A stretch of 64,000 nucleotides of DNA. Origin: an uncultured Anaerolineales bacterium (GTDB taxonomy: Bacteria > Planctomycetota > Phycisphaerae > FEN-1346). Below, one piece after another: positions 80 to 44,014 of this stretch. Each line of letters opens with the position of its first letter. Within the stretch, counting starts at the first letter, position 1. The notes under the pieces were generated by a model. The model was given only the letters and a program-made list of their open reading frames with translations. It made no database searches and was not told where the DNA came from. The position numbers and the translations under genes were made by a program. The stretch covers positions 585 to 64,584 of the forward strand of contig CAYVAM010000001.1 in assembly GCA_964449275.1 (NCBI GenBank). The letters run 5' to 3'.

Positions 80-2980
80 ATGGCTAACGTCTACAAGAGC
101 ACGCTCAACCTGCCGAAGACGGCCTTCCCGATGAAGGCCAACCTCGTCCAGCGCGAGCCCGAAACCCGCCGGCGCTGGGCCAGGATGGACCTGTATGGGA
201 TGATCAGGGCCGCCGCCCATCCCAAGGGCCGGTACATCCTCCACGACGGGCCGCCGTACGCCAACGGCGACATCCATATCGGAACGGCCGTCAACAAGAT
301 CCTCAAAGACATCATCGTCAAGTACAAGACGATGCAGGGTTACGATGCCCCGTTCGTGCCGGGGTACGACTGTCACGGCCATCCGATCGAGCACGCCGTG
401 CGCCGCGAACTCGGCCCGAAGGCCGGGGCGATGAGCCCCGTCGAGATCCGAAAGCGCTGCGAAGCCTACGCCCGCAAGTTCATCGGGCACCAGAGCGAGC
501 AGTTCCAGATGCTCGGCGTCCTCGGACGGTGGGACCGGCCGTACCTGACGCTCGCGCCCGCGTACGAGCAGCGCCAGATGGAGACCCTCGCCCACCTGGT
601 GGACCAGGGGCTCATCCATCGGGAACTTCGAGCCATCCACTGGTGCATGCACTGCGAGACCGCCCTCGCGGAGGCCGAACTGGAGTACGAAGACGACGAG
701 GGGCCGAGCCTGTACGTCCTGTTCGTCCTCACCGAGGACGCGGCGGCGAAGTTGCCCGACCCGCTCACCGGGCAGCGCGTCCACCTCATGATCTGGACGA
801 CGACGCCGTGGACCCTCCCGGCCAATATGGCCGTGGCTGTGCACCCGGACTATCGGTACGCTTTGATTCGCTACGAGAAGGACGGCGATAAGCGCTCGGC
901 GTTCGTCGCCGAGGACCTCGTGGACACAGTCACGCAGGGCGCGGGCTTGGAGAATGTCGAGACGCTCACAACATTCACCGGCGCGGAACTCCAGGGCCTG
1001 ACCTACGAGCATCCGTTCATGGGCCCACCCTCCGGTGCCGAGTTCCGCCAGGTCTGGGCCGATCCGACCATGGTCACCCTCGAAGAGGGCACGGGCCTCG
1101 TGCACTCGGCCCCCGGCCACGGCCGCGAGGACAACCTCATGGGCCTGAGGGTCGGCATCCCGACCTACAGCCCCGTCACGGCCCAGGGCCGCATGGACGA
1201 GACCGTCCCGGACTGGATCCAGGGCAAGACCGTCTGGGAAGCCAACGATATCATCCTGGACCATCTCGCCGAGAGCGGGCACCTGGTCGCCTCCGGCATG
1301 ACGGCCCACCGGTACCCGCACTGCTGGCGGTGCCGCGAGCCGGTCATCTTCCGGGCCACCGAGCAGTGGTTCGTTGCGCTCGACAAGGCGGACGAGGGCA
1401 AGAGCCTGCGGCACCGTGCGCTGGAGGCGGTGGGCGGCGTCCACTGGGTGCCGGCGTGGACGGAGTCGCGCATCCGCGCGATGATCGAGACGCGGCCCGA
1501 CTGGTGCATCAGCCGCCAGAAGGTCTGGGACGTGCCGATCCCCGCCCTGTACTGCAAGGCGTGCGGCCAGGCGCTCCTGACGGGCGACATGATGCGGGCC
1601 GCCGCCAAGTTCTACGGCCGGCATGGCTCCGGCGCCTGGTACGAGGCCACGGTCGAGGATGTCTTCGGCCAGGCACCGACGTGCCCGAATTGCGACGCCA
1701 CCGACTGGCGCATGGAGACCGACGTCTTCGACGTCTGGCTCGATTCGGGCGTATCCTGGGCCAGCGCGTGCGAGGTCGAAGGGTTCGACGTGCCGGTGGA
1801 ACTGTACATCGAAGGCTCCGACCAGCACCGCGGGTGGTTCCAGTCGAGCCTTATCATGGGCGTGGTGGCGCGCGGACAGCCGCCGTTCCGCACGTGCATC
1901 ACCCACGGGTTCGTCGTGGACGAGGAAGGCCGCAAGATGTCCAAGAGCCTCGGCAACACCGTCAGCGTGCTGGACGAGGTGAAGCGGCTGGGGGCGGACG
2001 TGGTGCGCCTGTGGACGTCGAGCGTCGATTACGCCGGCGACATCCGGGCCTCCGACACACTGATCTCGAGCCTCCAGGACGCCTACCGCAAGATCCGAAA
2101 CACCGTCCGCTTCCTGCTGGGGAACCTGGCGGATTTCGACGCCGGCGCGCACGCCGTCCAACCCGGCGGCCTGGAGGAGATCGACCGGTGGCTGCTCGCG
2201 CGGCTGCAGCGGCTGGTGGCCGACGTGACCGCCGAGATGGAGGCGTTCCAGTTCCACCGCGTGTACCAGTTGGCCCACCTGTTCTGCGTGAACGACCTGA
2301 GCGCCTTCTACCTGGACGTGCAGAAAGACGTCCTGTACTGCGACGCGACCGGCTCGCCTCGCCGCCGCAGCGCCCAGACGGCCATGGCCCAGGTGGCCGA
2401 GGTGCTGGTGCGGCTGGTGGCGCCGATCCTGGTGCACACGGCGGAGGAGGCGTGGTCGCATCTGCCTGCCCCCGCCGAGGGCGATGCTACTCTGCGAAGC
2501 ACGAGGCGCGAAGAGAGCGTCCACCTGGCCGCATGGCCGCAGGTCGATGCCAAAGTCCTCGACGAAGAACTCCTGGCCAAATGGGAATGGCTCCAGGACG
2601 TTCGGCGCAACGCCTACGCGGCGCTCGAGGTCTTCCGCCAGGAGGGCAAGTTCGACAAGCACACCGAGGCCCGGGTGGCGCTGGCCGTGGCCGACGCCTC
2701 GGAACTCGAGCGCCTCCGCGAAGTGGGCGCCGAGACGCTCGCCGACCTGCTCCTCGTCAGTGAACTCCTGCTCGTGGCGCCCGAAGAGGCCGAGACGCTC
2801 GAAGGTGAGAGGGCGATGGGCGACGCCGCCAACGGCAAGCGGTTACACTCGGCCACGTTGCTCGTCCAGGAGTACGCCCGCTGCGAGCGGTGCTGGAACT
2901 ATCGGGCGAGCGTCGGTGAGGCCGAACCCGAAGACCTCTGCACCCGGTGCCGCCAGGTCCTCGCCGAACAGACACGTTAG
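80..2980 (+). CDS. ileS: Isoleucyl-tRNA synthetase
   Basis: The 970-aa ORF carries the class I aaRS HIGH motif (PPYANGDIHIGTA), KMSKS (KMSKSLGN) and a C-terminal Zn-ribbon (CxxC...CxxC). The start is moved to ATG 80 (MANVYK) because GAGG lies 6 nt upstream. ATG 68 has no RBS. Confidence 0.9.
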   Translation: MANVYKSTLNLPKTAFPMKANLVQREPETRRRWARMDLYGMIRAAAHPKGRYILHDGPPYANGDIHIGTAVNKILKDIIVKYKTMQGYDAPFVPGYDCHGHPIEHAVRRELGPKAGAMSPVEIRKRCEAYARKFIGHQSEQFQMLGVLGRWDRPYLTLAPAYEQRQMETLAHLVDQGLIHRELRAIHWCMHCETALAEAELEYEDDEGPSLYVLFVLTEDAAAKLPDPLTGQRVHLMIWTTTPWTLPANMAVAVHPDYRYALIRYEKDGDKRSAFVAEDLVDTVTQGAGLENVETLTTFTGAELQGLTYEHPFMGPPSGAEFRQVWADPTMVTLEEGTGLVHSAPGHGREDNLMGLRVGIPTYSPVTAQGRMDETVPDWIQGKTVWEANDIILDHLAESGHLVASGMTAHRYPHCWRCREPVIFRATEQWFVALDKADEGKSLRHRALEAVGGVHWVPAWTESRIRAMIETRPDWCISRQKVWDVPIPALYCKACGQALLTGDMMRAAAKFYGRHGSGAWYEATVEDVFGQAPTCPNCDATDWRMETDVFDVWLDSGVSWASACEVEGFDVPVELYIEGSDQHRGWFQSSLIMGVVARGQPPFRTCITHGFVVDEEGRKMSKSLGNTVSVLDEVKRLGADVVRLWTSSVDYAGDIRASDTLISSLQDAYRKIRNTVRFLLGNLADFDAGAHAVQPGGLEEIDRWLLARLQRLVADVTAEMEAFQFHRVYQLAHLFCVNDLSAFYLDVQKDVLYCDATGSPRRRSAQTAMAQVAEVLVRLVAPILVHTAEEAWSHLPAPAEGDATLRSTRREESVHLAAWPQVDAKVLDEELLAKWEWLQDVRRNAYAALEVFRQEGKFDKHTEARVALAVADASELERLREVGAETLADLLLVSELLLVAPEEAETLEGERAMGDAANGKRLHSATLLVQEYARCERCWNYRASVGEAEPEDLCTRCRQVLAEQTR

Positions 2981-3066
2981 CCGGCGGGCTTGCCCGCCGC
3001 GTGCTGCCGACCCTGCCGCGGAAGCGGCTCGACAAGACACGTTAGCCGGCGGGCTTGCCCGCCGCG
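2966..3066. repeat. Tandem duplication (63-bp period) of the ileS 3' end plus a REP-like GC hairpin, CGTTAGCCGGCGGGCTTGCCCGCCGCG
   Basis: The segment cga(a/c)a(g/a)gacacgttagccggcgggcttgcccgccgcg occurs twice, at 2966-3002 and 3029-3066. The hairpin stem is GGCGGGC/GCCCGCC. The same core recurs at 22163-22281, 28952-28984 and 47271-47306. Confidence 0.8.
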
Positions 3067-5141: not shown

Positions 5142-6314
5142 ATGAACAGCCCCCTCCGCCGCTCGCGACACGTTGCGGCACAGGCCCTGACCCTCGCCGC
5201 TGTGGCCGTCCTCGCCGCCGGTTGCAGGCTGAGCGAGCAACGTAAACTCACCGTCGTCTTGGTCGAATACAAGGGGCCCGAGGCCGTCGCCAGCGCCCAG
5301 CGACTCGTCAAGGAACTCTCGGCGCAAGGCTTGCCCGACGTCTTCACCGTTGAGGGCGCCGAGTACGCCAGCGTCTGCGTCGGCCGATACAACTCGTGGA
5401 AGGACGCCGACGCCGACGCCATGCTCAAACGCGTCCGCGTCATCCGCGACGCTCGGGGGCAGTATCCGTTCGCCGGCGTCCTGCTGGTGCCGGTGCCCGA
5501 ACCGCTGCCGAAGAACCCCTGGCCGCTCGAGCAGGCCGACGGTCTGTTCACCCTCCACGTCGGCAGTTGGGAGGCCCCCGGCCGTATGGCCAGCGCCCAG
5601 CGGTACGCCGGCAGCCTGAGGTCGCGCGGGTACGAAGCATACGCCTACCACGGGCCGCGGCTCAGCATGGTCACCCTCGGCGCGTTCGGGATGCGAATCT
5701 TCGACGATCCCGGCAAGGTCGGCCGGCCGAAGGCCAAACCGAAGATCATCGACCCGAAGGTCCTGGGCCTCATCAAGAAGTTCCCGCGCATGCGTCTGGA
5801 AGGGCAGGAGACCCCGCCCGAAGCGCACGTGCAGACGCAACTGGTCAGGGTTCCGGGAAAGGAACCCGCAGGGTCCGCCGTCGCCCGGTCCAGGTCGCTC
5901 TATCGGCTCACGATTCTGTTCGTGGACACCAAGACGGGCCTGGCCCAGGGCCGCATGCGGGCGTCGGGCGTTGCGCAGGGCAAGGCTGAACTGCCGACGC
6001 TTGTCGGCGCACTCGTCAAGCAACTGATGGCCGGCCTCCCGCGGGACAAGGTCGCTCGTGTCGGCGTGGTCGGCGTTCTGGCAGCCGACCCGGCCTCCGC
6101 CAAGGACGGCGTGGACGCCACGGCACTGGAGGCCCTGAACGCCGCCCTGCGGGCCGCCGGCGCCGGCAGGATCCGCCTCTTCAGCCAGGAAGGTACGCGA
6201 CAGATGCTCGACGCGGCGGGGCTGAAGTCCGAAGACATCCTTCGCGATCCCCGACCGGTCAAGGGATTCGAAGCGCTCGACTTGCTCGTCGTCGGCTCGG
6301 TCAAGGCGTTCTAA
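5142..6314 (+). CDS. Lipoprotein with two SPOR-like (sporulation-related repeat) domains
   Basis: Signal peptide plus lipobox (LAAGC). Two roughly 70-aa repeats have a SPOR-like beta-alpha-beta-beta pattern (YASVCVGRYNSWKDADA...; FTLHVGSWEAPGRMASAQRYAGSL...). GGGAGGA RBS is present. Confidence 0.45.
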   Translation: MNSPLRRSRHVAAQALTLAAVAVLAAGCRLSEQRKLTVVLVEYKGPEAVASAQRLVKELSAQGLPDVFTVEGAEYASVCVGRYNSWKDADADAMLKRVRVIRDARGQYPFAGVLLVPVPEPLPKNPWPLEQADGLFTLHVGSWEAPGRMASAQRYAGSLRSRGYEAYAYHGPRLSMVTLGAFGMRIFDDPGKVGRPKAKPKIIDPKVLGLIKKFPRMRLEGQETPPEAHVQTQLVRVPGKEPAGSAVARSRSLYRLTILFVDTKTGLAQGRMRASGVAQGKAELPTLVGALVKQLMAGLPRDKVARVGVVGVLAADPASAKDGVDATALEALNAALRAAGAGRIRLFSQEGTRQMLDAAGLKSEDILRDPRPVKGFEALDLLVVGSVKAF

Positions 6315-6493
6315 GCGGTCTTACGTAAGTCTTTTGCTGTGGCGAGAACGGCACCCGCTCGCTTACGCTCGCGGCTAGTTACACTCGCGCCCGACCAGCC
6401 ACGTGAGAAAACCAGCCGCGCACGTAAGTAAGCGGCGCAACCCCTTGGGCTACGAGCCCAATCAGTTGTCCGCAGCCGCTCACAGGACCTGCC

Positions 6494-10757: not shown

Positions 10758-10880
10758 CGGGCGCCCCCTCCTGCGGCCATCCCCCAAGTGGAAGCGCATA
10801 GTTTAGAGAGGTCGATGCAGTGTGTCAAGCGGGCGGGCCGGACTGACGGTGGCGAGATTCTTCGTGCCCGGAGCGCGGGC

Positions 10881-11020
10881 GGTTGTAGCGCCGGGCTTTA
10901 TGCCCGGTCCCGATGTATCGGGATTGGCAGCGGCGCCGGCCAGGATGCGCCGGGGATAAACCCCGGCGCTACGGCCAAACCGCAGGAAATCGTCCCATGC
11001 CGGAAAAAGTTGCCACACGC
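10881..11020. repeat. MITE-like element, copy 1. It has 23-bp terminal inverted repeats (GTAGCGCCGGGCTTTATGCCCGG ... CCGGGGATAAACCCCGGCGCTAC)
   Basis: The terminal inverted repeat (TIR) contains a small hairpin (CCGGGC-ttta-t-GCCCGG). Copies are at 10881-11020, 20089-20175 and 20176-20320 (a tandem pair) and at 43820-43897 (inverted orientation and diverged). About 40 bp of conserved sequence extends to the right of the TIR (ccgcaggaaatcgtc.catgcc.gaaa..gttgccac). Confidence 0.8.
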
Positions 11021-11042
11021 CCGTCCCGGGAGCCGGCAGAAC

Positions 11043-11070
11043 TTGACTTTGGGCCAATTGTGTGTAAACT
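11043..11070 (+). promoter_or_regulatory. Sigma70-like promoter: -35 TTGACT, 16-nt spacer, extended -10 TGtTAAACT
   Basis: This AT-rich patch (ttgactttgggccaattgtgtgtaaactt) lies in 70% GC DNA, about 175 nt upstream of the 11246 start. Confidence 0.45.
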
Positions 11071-17912: not shown

Positions 17913-17931
17913 TCAAACGGCCTTCACGGAA

Positions 17932-17973
17932 GTTCAGAGTTCAAGGTTCAAGGTTCAAGGTTCAAAGTTCAAA
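17932..17973. repeat. Tandem heptamer array, (GTTCARR) x6, in the GH57 5' region
   Basis: The array reads gttcaga gttcaag gttcaag gttcaag gttcaaa gttcaaa. It is an inverted copy of the array at 18476-18531. Confidence 0.9.
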
Positions 17974-18432: not shown

Positions 18433-18475
18433 AAAAGGTCCAAAACTCCAACGCGAGCCTCAGGCGGTCGTTCAC

Positions 18476-18531
18476 TTTGAACTTTGAACTTTGAACCTTG
18501 AACTTTGAACCTTGAACTTTGAACCTTGAAC
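18476..18531. repeat. Tandem heptamer array, (YTTGAAC) x8, the reverse complement of GTTCAAR
   Basis: Eight units abut the GT4 stop codon. Together with 17932-17973 it forms inverted arrays bracketing the four-helix-bundle gene. Confidence 0.9.
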
Positions 18532-19856
18532 TACTTCCCGCCTTCCGTCGCATCCCGATAGACTTCCATACACGCCTGCCCGGCGTCGGTCCAGGCGAAT
18601 TTGCGGACCTCGAACGCCCCGTGTTCGCGGAGCGTTTTCTGGAGCGGCGGGTGCCGCAGCACCGCCACGATCTTGTTCGCCATCTCATGGATATCCCAGA
18701 AATCAACCTTCAACGCGTGCGTCAGAACCTCGCTCACGCCGCTCTGTTTCGAGATCAGCACCGGCACGTCGTGCTGGAGCGCCTCAAGCGGCGCCAGGCC
18801 GAACGGCTCGCTCACGCTCGGCATCACATACAGGTCGGCCATCTCGAAGACGCGGTCCAGGTCGGCGCCACGGAGGAACCCGGTGAACGTCACGCGGTGG
18901 CCGATGCCCATGGCGGCGGCCAGTTCGATCATCCGCCGGATCATGTCGCCGGAGCCGGCCATGACGAACTTGACGTTGTCCATAACCTCCAGCACCTTCT
19001 TGGCCGCCGCCAGAAAATACTCCGGGCCCTTCTGCATCGTGATGCGGCCGAGGAACAGAACGATCTTGTCGCCTCGCTCGATGCGGTTGACGCTCGTCCG
19101 GACCGGCTCGCCGTTGATGGTGATGGCGTTGTAAATGACGCGGCACTTCGACTTTGGCACGCCGTAGTGCCCGGTCACGATGCCGCGCGTCAGGCGGCTG
19201 ACGCAGATAACGCTCCGTGCCCCGTGCAGGCCGGCGCGTTCCACGTCGTAGACCCGCTGGTTCACGTGCAGGCCGCTTCGGTCGAACTCCGTGGAGTGGA
19301 CGTGCACGACGAGCGGCTTGCCCGTGAGCGCCGCCACGCTCAGGCCGGCCGGGTACGTCATCCAATCGTGCGCGTGGATGACATCGAACTCGTGCCGCCG
19401 CGCTACCTCCGCCACCAGGCGTGCGTACCGGTTGATCTCGCCGAAGAGGTCTCCCGCGTACATGTCCGGCCCGTTCGTGAGACCGAGACTGGTCGGCCCA
19501 TGGGGATCGAGGGCGGCCGCGAAGGCCTCCCCGGCGCTGGCCTGGCCGGCGTGCGTCTCGCGCCGCCGCTCTTCCCGGTATCGCGCTTCGGTCTGGTACG
19601 GGTCGAGGGCTGCGGCCACGGGGATGAGGCGGACGTGTTCCAGTCCCTCGACGGTCCAGTAAGCGGTCCGGCCCGGGTTATCGACCGCCGAGAGAACGTG
19701 GACGCGGTCGACCCGCCCGTCGGCCCCGCCGCGAGGGAGCACGAACAGGATATCCGTACCCAGATCGCTGAGGGCCTTGGTCAGGCCATAGCAGGCGGTC
19801 CCCAGACCGCCGCTTATGAAAGGCGGGAACTCCCACCCCAACATCAGGATTCGCAT
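18531..19856 (-). CDS. Glycosyltransferase family 4 (probable alpha-glucan/glycogen synthase-like)
   Basis: GT4 architecture: N-terminus MRILMLGWEFPPFISGGLGTA. EX7E region (SEPFGLAPLEALQHDVPV). Adjacent to GH57, as in alpha-glucan clusters. Confidence 0.75.
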   Translation of the reverse strand: MRILMLGWEFPPFISGGLGTACYGLTKALSDLGTDILFVLPRGGADGRVDRVHVLSAVDNPGRTAYWTVEGLEHVRLIPVAAALDPYQTEARYREERRRETHAGQASAGEAFAAALDPHGPTSLGLTNGPDMYAGDLFGEINRYARLVAEVARRHEFDVIHAHDWMTYPAGLSVAALTGKPLVVHVHSTEFDRSGLHVNQRVYDVERAGLHGARSVICVSRLTRGIVTGHYGVPKSKCRVIYNAITINGEPVRTSVNRIERGDKIVLFLGRITMQKGPEYFLAAAKKVLEVMDNVKFVMAGSGDMIRRMIELAAAMGIGHRVTFTGFLRGADLDRVFEMADLYVMPSVSEPFGLAPLEALQHDVPVLISKQSGVSEVLTHALKVDFWDIHEMANKIVAVLRHPPLQKTLREHGAFEVRKFAWTDAGQACMEVYRDATEGGK

Positions 19857-20088
19857 CTCGCCAGCCGCCTATGCCCCTCTCGCGCCCCGCCTCCGGCGAA
19901 GCGCGCCCGCAGTACAACCCCTCCGCTTTGCGTCCCTTGCACAAACCGCCACCCTGCCGGTTCACCAACTCCTATTCTATCATTCTATCCCCGGCCCGCA
20001 AGCCTGTCAAACGATAAGACACAATGGCCTCTGTCGCCCCGACCGACCCCCGGCCCGTCATGGCAAGTTTTTCTGGCGAGCGAAGGCG

Positions 20089-20320
20089 GTTGTAGCGCCG
20101 GGCTTTATGCCCGGCGGCCGTTGGCGGCGGCGCCGGCCAGGATGCGCCGGGGATAAACCCCGGCGCTACGGCCAAGGTTGTAGCGCCGGGCTTTATGCCC
20201 GGTCCCGATGTATCGGGATTGGCGGCGGCGCCGGCCACGATGCGCCGGGGATAAACCCCGGCGCTACGGCCAAGCCGCAGGAAATCGTCGCATGCCAGAA
20301 ATCGTTGCCACCCCCCCCCC
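20089..20320. repeat. Two tandem copies of the MITE-like element (20089-20175, 20176-20274) plus the conserved right-flank extension
   Basis: Same TIRs as at 10881. Copy 2 matches copy 1 at 10881 nearly base for base, including the internal tcccgatgtatcgggattggc hairpin. Confidence 0.85.
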
Positions 20321-22163: not shown

Positions 22164-22281
22164 CGTGGTTAGCCGGCGGGCTTTGCGCGGCGGGTCAGGA
22201 GACCCGCCGCGCATAATGGGCAGCGCGTCGTCATCGAACTCGGCAAGTAACCTGGTTAGCCGGCGGGCTTGCCCGCCGCGC
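22163..22281. repeat. REP-like palindromes duplicating the sulfatase 3' end: cgtggTTAGCCGGCGGGC...CCCGCCGCG, with the nested palindrome GCGCGGCGGGTCAGGAGACCCGCCGCGC
   Basis: Copies are at 22163-22210, with a 19-bp nested insertion, and at 22250-22281. Both are preceded by a recopied ggcaagtaac stop-codon segment. Confidence 0.8.
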
Positions 22282-38182: not shown

Positions 38183-38818
38183 GGTTCATCCCTCCCACTC
38201 GACATCCACGCCTCGCTTTCCACCAGTGATACGCTGCGGGGGAGAGGGTTATTCGCGGATTGCGCCTGGTCTGCCGGCAGGTGCGGAAACGGTACGCCGC
38301 TAGTGTTCTGTCCCACGTGAAACGGTGGGTGCCACTGGCGGCTTGTCCGCCAGTGCCTTCCTGCTGCTCGCCACACACTGGCTGACAAGCAGCCAGTGGC
38401 ACCCTGCAAATCAGCAGAGACGCGAGCCCTAGCCGTCGCCGATCCGCATAAGTTCATCCGCCGGCGCCGGAAAGGGGTACGCAGCGAAATCTCTTGACCG
38501 CCCATCGGCCGGTGCGCATCATTCCCGTCGCGGCCCTGCGGAAGGACCGACCGAAGTGTACGACGTCCACGAAGTCCGCCGGAAGCGCGGCTGCCGCAAT
38601 CCGGCGAGCCGAGACCAGCCGTGGGTGCTGCGGTGGGCCGACCCGCCGGGTTCCAAGGACCTGCGGCAGCGGACGGTCGGCCTGGGAACCGGCCAGGAGC
38701 ATCAAGGAACTGCTGCGGTGAAACGCGCCGGGCACGACCGGTTCTGCGGCGCAGAAGTGGCGCAGCCTACAGACCGGACGGCCGAAACGCGCGTAAGTCT
38801 TGCGGCCTCAACCACTTC

Positions 38819-38893
38819 GGGCCCATAGCTCAGCGGCAGAGCAGGGGACTCATAATCCCTTGGTCGCAGGTTCGAATCCTGCTGGGCCCACCA
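38819..38893 (+). tRNA. tRNA-Met (anticodon CAT). Elongator-type G1:C72. It could also be tRNA-Ile2 (lysidine)
   Basis: Cloverleaf: 7-bp acceptor stem GGGCCCA/TGGGCCC, D-arm GCTC..GAGC, anticodon loop CTCATAA, T-arm GCAGG-TTCGAAT-CCTGC, discriminator A, encoded CCA. Confidence 0.85.
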
Positions 38894-43394: not shown

Positions 43395-43823
43395 ATGCTG
43401 GAGGACCTTCGCCTGCCGGACGGCGAACTGTACGATGAGGATTTCTTCGCCTACGCCGACGAGGCCGACGTGGGCTGGCGGGCCCGGCGGCTGGGATGGA
43501 AAAGCCTGTACGAGCCCTCGGCCTTGGTGTACCATCATCAGGTGGCCCCCTCGGGCAGCGTGAGTCCGCTGCTGGTCCGGCTGGTGGAGCGGAACCGCAT
43601 CTGGGTGGCCGTCAAGAACTTCCCGACTTGGCTCCTCGCCTGCGGGGTGGCGTGGTTGGTGTGGCGGACATTCCGGCAGGTGTGGGGTGGCCTGACGCGC
43701 CGGGGCCGGGCCGGTTGGGCGTCGGGCGGCTCCGGGAGGTCTTCCGCCGGTTCGGCATCGCCGCACGCGACATCGCTCTGCGGGACTAAGCAGGAGCAAG
43801 GAAATCTTTCCGAACAGCGGTAG
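43395..43823 (+). pseudogene. Glycosyltransferase family 2 C-terminal fragment (N-terminal catalytic half missing)
   Basis: EDFFAYADEADVGWRARRLGWKSLYEPSALVYHH is the typical GT2 C-terminal block. An in-frame stop lies at 43338. No DxD domain is present upstream. It abuts MITE copy 43820-43897. Confidence 0.5.
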
Positions 43824-43897
43824 CGCCGGGGTTTATCCCCGGCGCGGAACCGCCGTCGGCCTGACTATCCGGCCGCCGGGCATGAAGCCCGGCGCTA
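43820..43897. repeat. MITE-like element copy in inverted orientation and diverged (GTAGCGCCGGGGTTTATCCCCGG ... CCGGGCATGAAGCCCGGCGCTAC)
   Basis: Its TIRs are the reverse-complement forms of those at 10881 and 20089. Confidence 0.7.
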
Positions 43898-44014
43898 CGG
43901 ACTTGGGTGCACGCCAAGTCAGCCGCCGAATTCGGATTGACTTCATCGCTCCTGCTTAGCCATGCCGGCCATTTGGCCGCCGTGCTTGCGCAGCGCGTTT
44001 CTAAGGATATATAC

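Follow-up and report, generated by a model that had tools for sequence, protein, structure and literature searches.

The window, that is, the whole 64-kb stretch of DNA analysed here, contains three repeat elements, copies A, B, and C, in which REP doublets are enclosed by an outer sequence that we call the shell. All copies are intergenic, with copies A and B each lying between divergent genes. Copy A separates lysA from a PEP-CTERM gene and is flanked by the two predicted divergent promoters of these genes; copy B lies upstream of a predicted GT4 promoter (20010-19982, minus strand), the GT4 side being the only one for which a promoter was predicted there. Searching the window with GTAGCGCCGGGCTTTATGCCCGG (up to three mismatches) returned eight matches, at 10885, 10950(-), 20092, 20147(-), 20180, 20245(-), 43820, and 43876(-), compared to none across 100 dinucleotide-preserving shuffles of the window. 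These half-sites, of 23–25 nt each, form four head-outward inverted doublets of 79–88 bp, at 10885-10972, 20092-20169, 20180-20267, and 43820-43898 (doublets 1 to 4), with doublets 2 and 3 arranged head to tail in tandem around the linker GGCCAAGGTT. A preliminary description of this locus had reported a dispersed, non-coding inverted-repeat family with four copies including a tandem pair, which these results confirm. The starts it had placed at 10881, 20089, and 20176 are 3–4 nt ahead of the GTAG of a half-site, and its end at 11020 is the true right end of the composite element. The individual features are as follows.

10800..10828 (-): predicted lysA promoter (TTGACA, 17 nt, TAAACT), outside the element, lying about 16 nt to the left of copy A
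10845..11020 (+): copy A, a single REP doublet in a shell-1 composite; left arm degenerate (GACGGTGGCGAGATTCTTCGTGCCCGGAGCGCGGGCGGTT), right arm intact and fitting the family consensus
10885..10909 (+): REP half-site with C-type stem, GTAG CGCCGGGC TTTAT GCCCGG(TC)
10948..10972 (-): REP half-site with G-type stem, GTAG CGCCGGGG TTTAT CCCCGGCG; hairpin of -14.4 kcal/mol, z -6.2
10973..11020 (+): shell-1 right arm of copy A, closing with the terminal repeat GCCGGAAAAAGTTGCCACACGC
11043..11070 (+): promoter predicted for the PEP-CTERM gene (TTGACT, 16 nt, TAAACT), outside the element, lying 22 nt to the right of copy A
20056..20315 (+): copy B, two REP doublets in tandem within a shell-1 composite
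20092..20169 (+): first doublet of copy B; its spacer of 32 nt makes it the most frequent form of the family
20170..20179 (+): linker GGCCAAGGTT, in which 7 nt from the start of the right arm are followed by 3 nt from the end of the left arm
20180..20267 (+): second doublet of copy B, with a 42-nt spacer containing a small hairpin TCCCGATGTATCGGGA, as in copy A
43786..43959 (+): copy C, whose REP doublet sits in another palindromic shell (shell 2), bounded by CTAAGCAGGAGC...GCTCCTGCTTAG
43820..43898 (+): doublet of copy C, with the G-type REP on the left and the C-type REP (loop TTCAT) on the right, the reverse of copies A and B

Doublets 1 and 3 are 94% identical over 142 nt (10881-11022 vs 20176-20317), a common stretch that runs on for about 48 nt past the right-hand side of the doublet. 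The co-conserved flank of about 40 bp that had been said to follow the copies is thus present next to doublets 1 and 3, where it corresponds to the right arm of a 162-bp unit, and missing from doublet 2, which has the linker in its place, and from doublet 4, in which the spacer and flanks also differ from those of the other copies.

Half-sites are GTAG REPs with a covarying stem

Each half-site opens with a GTAG head, followed by a stem of 8 bp around a 5-nt loop (GTAG, CGCCGGGS, TTTAT, SCCCGGCG). A GTAG head with such a stem-loop characterises the GTAG super-family of REPs, in which HH dimers are the commonest arrangement (PMC3733652, PMC2817692), and the half-sites have the features by which this super-family is defined, i.e., a terminal GTAG/GTGG tag followed by an imperfect palindrome of 20–40 bp. 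Instead of the terminal inverted repeats of a transposon, as initially proposed, the 23-bp hairpins are therefore GTAG REP stem-loops in HH dimers, and the actual ends of copies A and B are located outside the REPs, at GGGTGTGGCAA...TTGCCACACCC. As single-stranded DNA, the window doublets were predicted to fold at -34 to -37 kcal/mol (z around -5), and single half-sites formed hairpins of their own at about -8 to -14 kcal/mol. Every window doublet pairs one C-type with one G-type REP stem, which creates a mismatch in the long hairpin and points to the individual REP hairpin as the conserved structure.

Scanning a genome collection with a pattern open to all four S/S combinations yielded at least 88 loci. 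Across the 198 half-sites from the window and the 88 loci listed, stem positions 12 and 18 were G:C in 108 cases, C:G in 88, and non-complementary in 2. Positions 24 and 25 lengthen the stem although they lie outside the scan pattern (C in 189 and G in 172 of the 198), and three singleton stem variants display doubly compensated changes. The covariation score reached 0.28 on 31 distinct variants, compared to 0.088 in shuffled data (none of 500 shuffles reaching 0.28) and at most 0.05 with slid partners. Hairpin-templated correction, instead of selection by a protein, could be a partial cause of this covariation.

Doublet spacers among the loci listed measured 32 nt in 35 cases, 29 nt in 11, and 42 nt in 6, the 10-nt linker GGCCAAGGTT joined tandem doublets in eight cases, and arrays comprised from 2 to about 4 doublets (about 4 in both L062 and L067). 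The doublets are thus organized as REPINs, with two inverted REPs around a spacer that can fold as one hairpin, while their arrays combine the alternating REP variants, fixed linker motifs, and tandem reiteration of BIMEs. In copy B, the junction between doublets reads GGCCAAG/GTT, which shows that what is repeated is the doublet together with a small number of adjoining bases, in the manner of BIME-like clusters. The earlier view that the tandem pair and flank pointed to something other than a simple REP was misleading, since tandem dimer arrays are typical of REP/BIME clusters (PMC3733652, PMC2817692).

The complete element belongs to one clade, the REP alone is more widespread

Comparative data came from fragmented MAGs throughout. 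At least 116 half-sites were detected in 42 8-kb blocks of the sister MAG JAUVZF01, spread over many contigs, and the family is thus not unique to the window; uniqueness to the window was one of the grounds on which the preliminary description would have been refuted. JAUVZF01 (labelled Planctomycetota), three MAGs labelled “Anaerolineales”, a Thermoguttaceae MAG, and the window share 78–96% nucleotide identity over kb-scale coding DNA, and the named relatives of both LysA and the RAYT described below are Phycisphaerae, from which we conclude that the full element belongs to a single clade. Judging from these similarities, the Anaerolineales labels of CAZEBQ01, CAZIJC01, and CAYTJE01 (loci L002-L083) look wrong. 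Sharing of the whole element across phyla was rejected, as the differently labelled MAGs form one clade. Exact-protein look-ups with the sulfatase and lysA ORFs of the window returned no record, and neither the REP nor a shell end was found in 2.9 million viral contigs.

The 23-nt REP alone, without the shell, was also identified in MAGs of 50–60% GC labelled Terriglobia/Acidobacteriota, Nitrospirota, Latescibacterota, Chloroflexota, and “uncultured bacterium” (L048, L085). At these cross-phylum loci (L003, L011, L014, L016, L019, L021, L030, L048, L053, L054, L057, L078, L081, L082, and L085), it is mostly joined in a tight heterodimer to a second GTAGCGC REP, GTAGCGCCGCCCTTTAGGGCGGC or GTAGCGCGGGGGCTTGTCCCCCGC. 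The usual picture of REPs and REPINs is one of vertical inheritance, dependence on a RAYT, and residence in gammaproteobacterial genomes, and a verbatim REP in several phyla is unexpected for systems described in this way.

A RAYT gene is flanked by the same REP in a sister genome

A motif screen of all loci identified a single HUH/Y ORF, at L060 168-665(-) in the sister MAG CAZEBQ01, which is 81–89% identical to JAUVZF01 at the nucleotide level over aligned kb-scale coding stretches. This ORF matched Pfam Y1_Tnp (1.5e-12) and the NCBIfam model REP_Tyr_transpos (NF047646; 95.9 bits, above the cut-off of 80), contains the motifs HVHVV and Y-x3-NP, and has E. coli TnpA-REP (4ER8) as its closest solved structure in the PDB. 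It is bracketed by window-type REPs, one at 686-708(-), about 20 nt before the start, and a doublet at 91-113(+)/125-147(-) past the stop; these are bare REPs with no shell ends. At least two inverted flanking REPs, as expected around a RAYT, are therefore present in L060, and L089-L091 are arranged alike. The preliminary description had advised a search for a cognate transposase of the IS200/IS605 or another family, and what we found, in a sister genome, is a RAYT flanked by the same repeat: as in IS200/IS605, the protein is a member of the HUH/Y1 superfamily (Pfam Y1_Tnp), which recognises subterminal hairpins, but the repeats have no transposase gene and the protein scores below the cut-off of the IS200 equivalog (38.8 vs 55 bits) and above that for RAYTs.

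Homologues of this RAYT are 57–62% (P0002, P0003, and P0004) and 67% (P0001) identical to the L060 protein. Each of the three contigs compared (P0002, P0003, and P0004, with P0001 left out) has its RAYT gene bracketed by GTAGCGC REPs (GTAGCGCGGGGG variants) with compensated stem changes, namely GTAGCGCGGGGGTTTATCCCCCGCG and a REP in which a GGGGG/CCCCC stem carries the loop CTTGT. In P0003 and P0004, the gene adjoins proC, which suggests a fixed chromosomal locus. No RAYT was detected within the window by motif screen or by tblastn with the L060 protein, and the genome to which the window belongs presumably encodes one elsewhere. ORFs between the REP clusters of L015 and L058 were dropped as RAYT candidates, as their translations resemble ordinary genes and were not flagged by the HUH/Y motif screen.

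A 162-bp shell with terminal inverted repeats and target-site duplications

The sequence to the right of doublets 1 and 3 closes with GCCAGAAATCGTTGCCAC, the reverse complement of which resembles GTGGCAAGTTTTTCTGGC to the left of the doublets. Among the loci listed, this outer motif is paired in 28 elements of 134–415 bp, with a modal length of 154 bp between motif ends, or 162 bp with the 4-nt outer GGGT/ACCC. The outer ends of the 162-bp composite are 22-bp inverted repeats (GGGTGTGGCAAsnnTTTCTGGC), and conservation is even over the entire consensus, indicating that the family spreads as one unit. The notion of a composite element was thus borne out, with the doublet located inside a 162-bp unit that has ends of its own. 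These 22-bp ends and the 162-bp non-coding consensus fall within the ranges by which MITEs are defined (terminal inverted repeats of 15–30 bp, size of 70–300 bp), and a search of Rfam returned no family matching the elements.

Direct repeats of 8–9 bp, unrelated in sequence and matching at 8/9 positions or more, flank 17 of the 28 elements, compared to 2% of permuted left/right flank pairs, the modal layout being N8-GGGT GTGGCAA...TTGCCAC ACCC-N8. The target-site duplications for which the preliminary description had advised looking are thus seen at the family level and are not clear at the window copies themselves. Copy A has no convincing flanking direct repeat, copy B has imperfect direct repeats of 13 nt on either side, CCCCC(G/T)GCCCGTC (direct reading), vs the modal 8 bp of the family, and no target-site duplication was seen at copy C. 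The left arm of copy A matches the consensus at 12 of its last 13 nt, and at 7 of 8 in GTGGCGAG vs GTGGCAAG, and the outermost 5–6 nt at the left end of copy B are aberrant (CGTCATGGCAAG in place of GGGTGTGGCAAG). Because both are members of the shell-1 family, copies A and B most likely arrived as a whole 162-bp unit. Copy C is the same doublet within a second, unrelated palindromic shell, which is found in loci of two other MAGs (95.5% identity over 178 nt to L029, 90% to L012).

Shell 1 is not tied to one type of content. Within the 162-bp family, the shorter REP GTAGCGCCCGTACGGGCG can take the place of a REP, and there is also a form of the element with a 12-nt insert. Other elements have only the outer ~22 bp in common with it, their cargo consisting of different nested palindromes or other GTAG REPs, and shell-1 ends also enclose unrelated palindromic cargo without these REPs. 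No parent IS combining shell ends with a transposase was found in the 88 loci listed and the window (about 0.5 Mb of clade loci) or in the viral contigs, and searches of the loci and window for inverted shell ends 0.5–5 kb apart with matching 8-mers, or for generic long inverted repeats 0.7–3.5 kb apart, returned nothing credible. A 3.4-kb inverted pair in L067 was rejected as an autonomous IS, as it represents another palindrome family (AAAAGGTTCCWGGAACCTTTT) around ordinary ORFs. A sigma-54 promoter reading of TGGCAA-N-TTTCTGGC was likewise rejected on inspection, its GG/GC spacing being unfit.

A REP doublet as the cargo of a putative miniature transposon

These elements are probably RAYT-linked GTAG REP doublets, nested in the case of copies A and B in a 162-bp miniature transposon of a family with terminal inverted repeats and target-site duplications. 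Two REPs facing apart with about 32 nt between them constitute a REPIN-like unit (GGTT-GTAG...CTAC-GGCC), and, if E. coli TnpA-REP is taken as a model, a RAYT of the HUH/Y1 type fixed in the chromosome would recognise the REP hairpin and GTAG on single-stranded DNA. This RAYT would create, maintain, and locally amplify doublets, which would also account for the tandem pair of copy B. IS200/IS605-type Y1 enzymes yield neither terminal inverted repeats nor target duplications (PMC2817692), and we therefore infer a second, staggered-cut transposase for the shell. Specifically, the doublet would have become the cargo of the 162-bp miniature transposon (22-bp terminal inverted repeats, 8–9 bp target-site duplications), the shell of which would be moved in trans by a DDE-type transposase making staggered cuts. 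More tentatively, the 162-bp unit may be a chimera of two systems, in which the captured doublet spreads by a DDE-type transposase independently of the RAYT, and the shell ends generally serve to carry several unrelated palindromic modules within this clade. Most doublets travel in a shell with classical transposon hallmarks, and, if this is confirmed, a REPIN can escape RAYT dependence.

The whole 162-bp unit, outer ends included, could alternatively be one long hairpin copied by the RAYT alone, with the flanking repeats reflecting a target preference or a pre-existing target palindrome, a reading that we consider unlikely. The 162-bp consensus does fold into a single long hairpin that pairs the outer ends and leaves each REP hairpin intact (-61.7 kcal/mol, z -7.7), and no DDE partner was found in the 88 loci listed and the window. 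Di Nocera et al. (2013; PMC3733652) further described GTAG dimers enclosed by long palindromes, REP dimers of this kind of setting being known from Anabaena variabilis and Halothiobacillus neapolitanus, as well as RAYT-like genes with flanking terminal inverted repeats sharing GGGGWSAS, which is similar to GGGGTGTG. Copying by a Y1 enzyme would, however, leave no target duplication (PMC2817692), yet 17 of 28 elements have one, shell ends also occur around cargo without these REPs, and the RAYT gene of L060 is bracketed by bare REPs instead of shell ends. Compared to the A. variabilis GTAG-15, H. neapolitanus CGTC-1, and T. roseum GTAG-23 repeats (PMC3733652), in which HH dimers likewise lie regularly within a longer inverted repeat, the enclosing sequence here differs in having 8–9 bp flanking duplications, which are not mentioned by Di Nocera et al., and in enclosing entirely different cargo.

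Conversely, the elements could be ordinary MITEs, i.e., deletion derivatives of an IS in which the GTAG hairpins are incidental and unrelated to a tyrosine transposase. As in bacterial MITEs such as Correia/NEMIS, RUP, Nezha, and MITEAba12, they are non-coding, intergenic, and close to promoters, measure 150–260 bp, and have 22-bp terminal inverted repeats and target-site duplications. Unlike in these MITEs, their core is the REP doublet of a Y1 transposase system, and no parent IS was found. An incidental hairpin is improbable, as the same hairpin also occurs outside shells, in the second shell, in tandem arrays, and, as a 23-mer without the shell, in other phyla; moreover, it directly flanks a RAYT that passes the curated threshold, and homologous RAYTs have REPs with compensated stem changes.

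Genomic location and absence from relatives

By a crude gene call, 85 of 89 REP clusters are intergenic, outside long high-GC3 ORFs, with 16 in divergent vs 6 in convergent intergenic regions. Excluding clusters at the edges, 25 clusters of the clade are in shell 1 with both ends, 15 in shell 1 with one end, 9 in shell 2, and 17 in no recognised shell, the latter including the clusters at the RAYT gene. Among the loci listed, 23 clusters of the clade (17 of them in JAUVZF01) lie at the end of a locus or contig, as REP repeats break MAG assemblies.

The lysA locus was then compared across relatives. No REP and no credible shell end were found in 80 metagenome loci around lysA relatives (53–83% identical). 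Closer relatives, with 90% LysA identity, have kept the synteny of lysA and the PEP-CTERM gene along with both promoters, with the element missing. The strong sigma-70-like lysA promoter, TTGACA-N17-TA(A/G)ACT, is kept across L092-L100 and L173-L178, and the PEP-CTERM promoter sequence in L173-L178. The spacer between the two promoters is about 75 or 150 nt in relatives vs about 230 nt in the window. Intergenic DNA of the relatives is too diverged for insertion borders to be defined, and flank-joining BLAST among the loci returned no clean empty site; the missing element and the shorter spacer fit an insertion in the lineage of the window, as far as sequence comparison can tell.

These data also bear on the reading that the repeats are a host-selected structural or regulatory motif, such as a protein-binding site, promoter insulator, or RNA hairpin, spread by recombination or gene conversion. 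The two predicted promoters around copy A, the one on the GT4 side of copy B, and the excess of clusters in divergent over convergent regions would suit such a motif, as would the high similarity of copies between MAGs with coding DNA that differs by 4–22%. Divergent regions are nevertheless simply bigger targets, relatives have the same promoter pair without the element, flanking duplications are a sign of insertion events, and no Rfam family matched. Single copies may have a function, yet this would not explain the spread of the family, and we regard selection on a host motif as very improbable. Finally, the chance that the four doublets stem from one duplicated segment or from collapsed metagenome repeats is negligible: the clusters at locus and contig ends do indicate that repeats disturb assembly, but similarity stops at the element borders with unrelated genes on either side, contrary to the single larger duplicated segment that the preliminary description had considered, and copies occur on dozens of contigs from several independently assembled MAGs. 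The elements lie just upstream of the promoters of polysaccharide-related genes, which makes them useful markers in strain typing and in the detection of insertion polymorphisms.

Comparison with known REP systems

The repeats are of a known class, REP/REPIN-RAYT doublets in BIME-like clusters, in a nested variant with terminal inverted repeats and target-site duplications; such a shell around REP doublets is without description in PMC3733652 or PMC2817692. In common with the GTAG REPs and RAYTs of E. coli (REP/TnpA-REP, 4ER8) and the REPINs of Pseudomonas fluorescens, they have a GTAG head on a G+C stem-loop, form head-outward doublets with a conserved spacer, are extragenic and present in many copies, and are accompanied, in a sister MAG, by a Y1/HUH gene bracketed by the same REP, with a fixed locus suggested for such genes by the two homologues next to proC. 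Unlike in these two systems, the host is a member of the Phycisphaerae (Planctomycetota), most doublets are inside a shell with terminal inverted repeats and target-site duplications, and copies favour promoter-side (divergent) intergenic regions instead of 3′ ends. As in enterobacterial BIMEs, two REP variants (C- and G-type, cf. Y and Z) alternate in orientation, the set of linker motifs is small, and units are reiterated in tandem (copy B, and about 4 doublets in L067 and L062). The sequences are different, however, BIMEs have no outer terminal inverted repeats or target duplications, and we saw no sign in these elements of the IHF, gyrase, and Pol I binding of BIMEs. Earlier reports of GTAG REPs in R. 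baltica, a planctomycete, and in O. terrae, a verrucomicrobium (PMC3733652), are extended here by a REP/RAYT system in uncultured Phycisphaerae. The general understanding of REPs is unchanged by these elements.

Other repeats in and around the window

Several other repeats were noticed in the same DNA. A head-outward doublet of another palindromic unit, GGGTGCCACTGGCGGCTTGTCCGCCAGTG, lies at 38327-38404 of the window, 415 nt upstream of its sole tRNA (38819-38890). Units resembling GGGTGCCACTGGCGGCTTGTCCGCCAGTG are also present in clade MAG loci and, in the low-GC “uncultured bacterium” MAG CBDTZI01, directly beside a GTAGCGCC REP. A third hairpin family, GTTAGCCGGCGGGCTTGCCCGCCG, occurs in direct orientation at 2976-2999, 3041-3064, and 22255-22278 (+) of the window, with six more copies in clade loci. 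Two of the window copies straddle or follow the stop, at 2980, of the ORF at 68-2980, and one is about 90 nt 3′ of a sulfatase gene; this hairpin may be a terminator-like or REP-like unit. Two repeat families of JAUVZF01 are absent from the window: the palindrome AAAAGGTTCCWGGAACCTTTT has 44 copies in the JAUVZF01 blocks listed (e.g., L067 3200-3360 and 6510-6600, L013, and L058), the short REP GTAGCGCCCGTACGGGCG has 24 in these blocks.

Upstream of the GT4 gene, inverted arrays of the heptamer TTGAAC(C/T) at 17930-17973 and 18474-18543, about 500 nt apart, bracket a short region with weak ORFs only. Lastly, a 160-nt intergenic stretch at 6312-6472, with no Rfam match, is 98% identical to L006 5057-5217 in a sister MAG, where it abuts a REP cluster, and is probably another module of a mosaic repeat repertoire.
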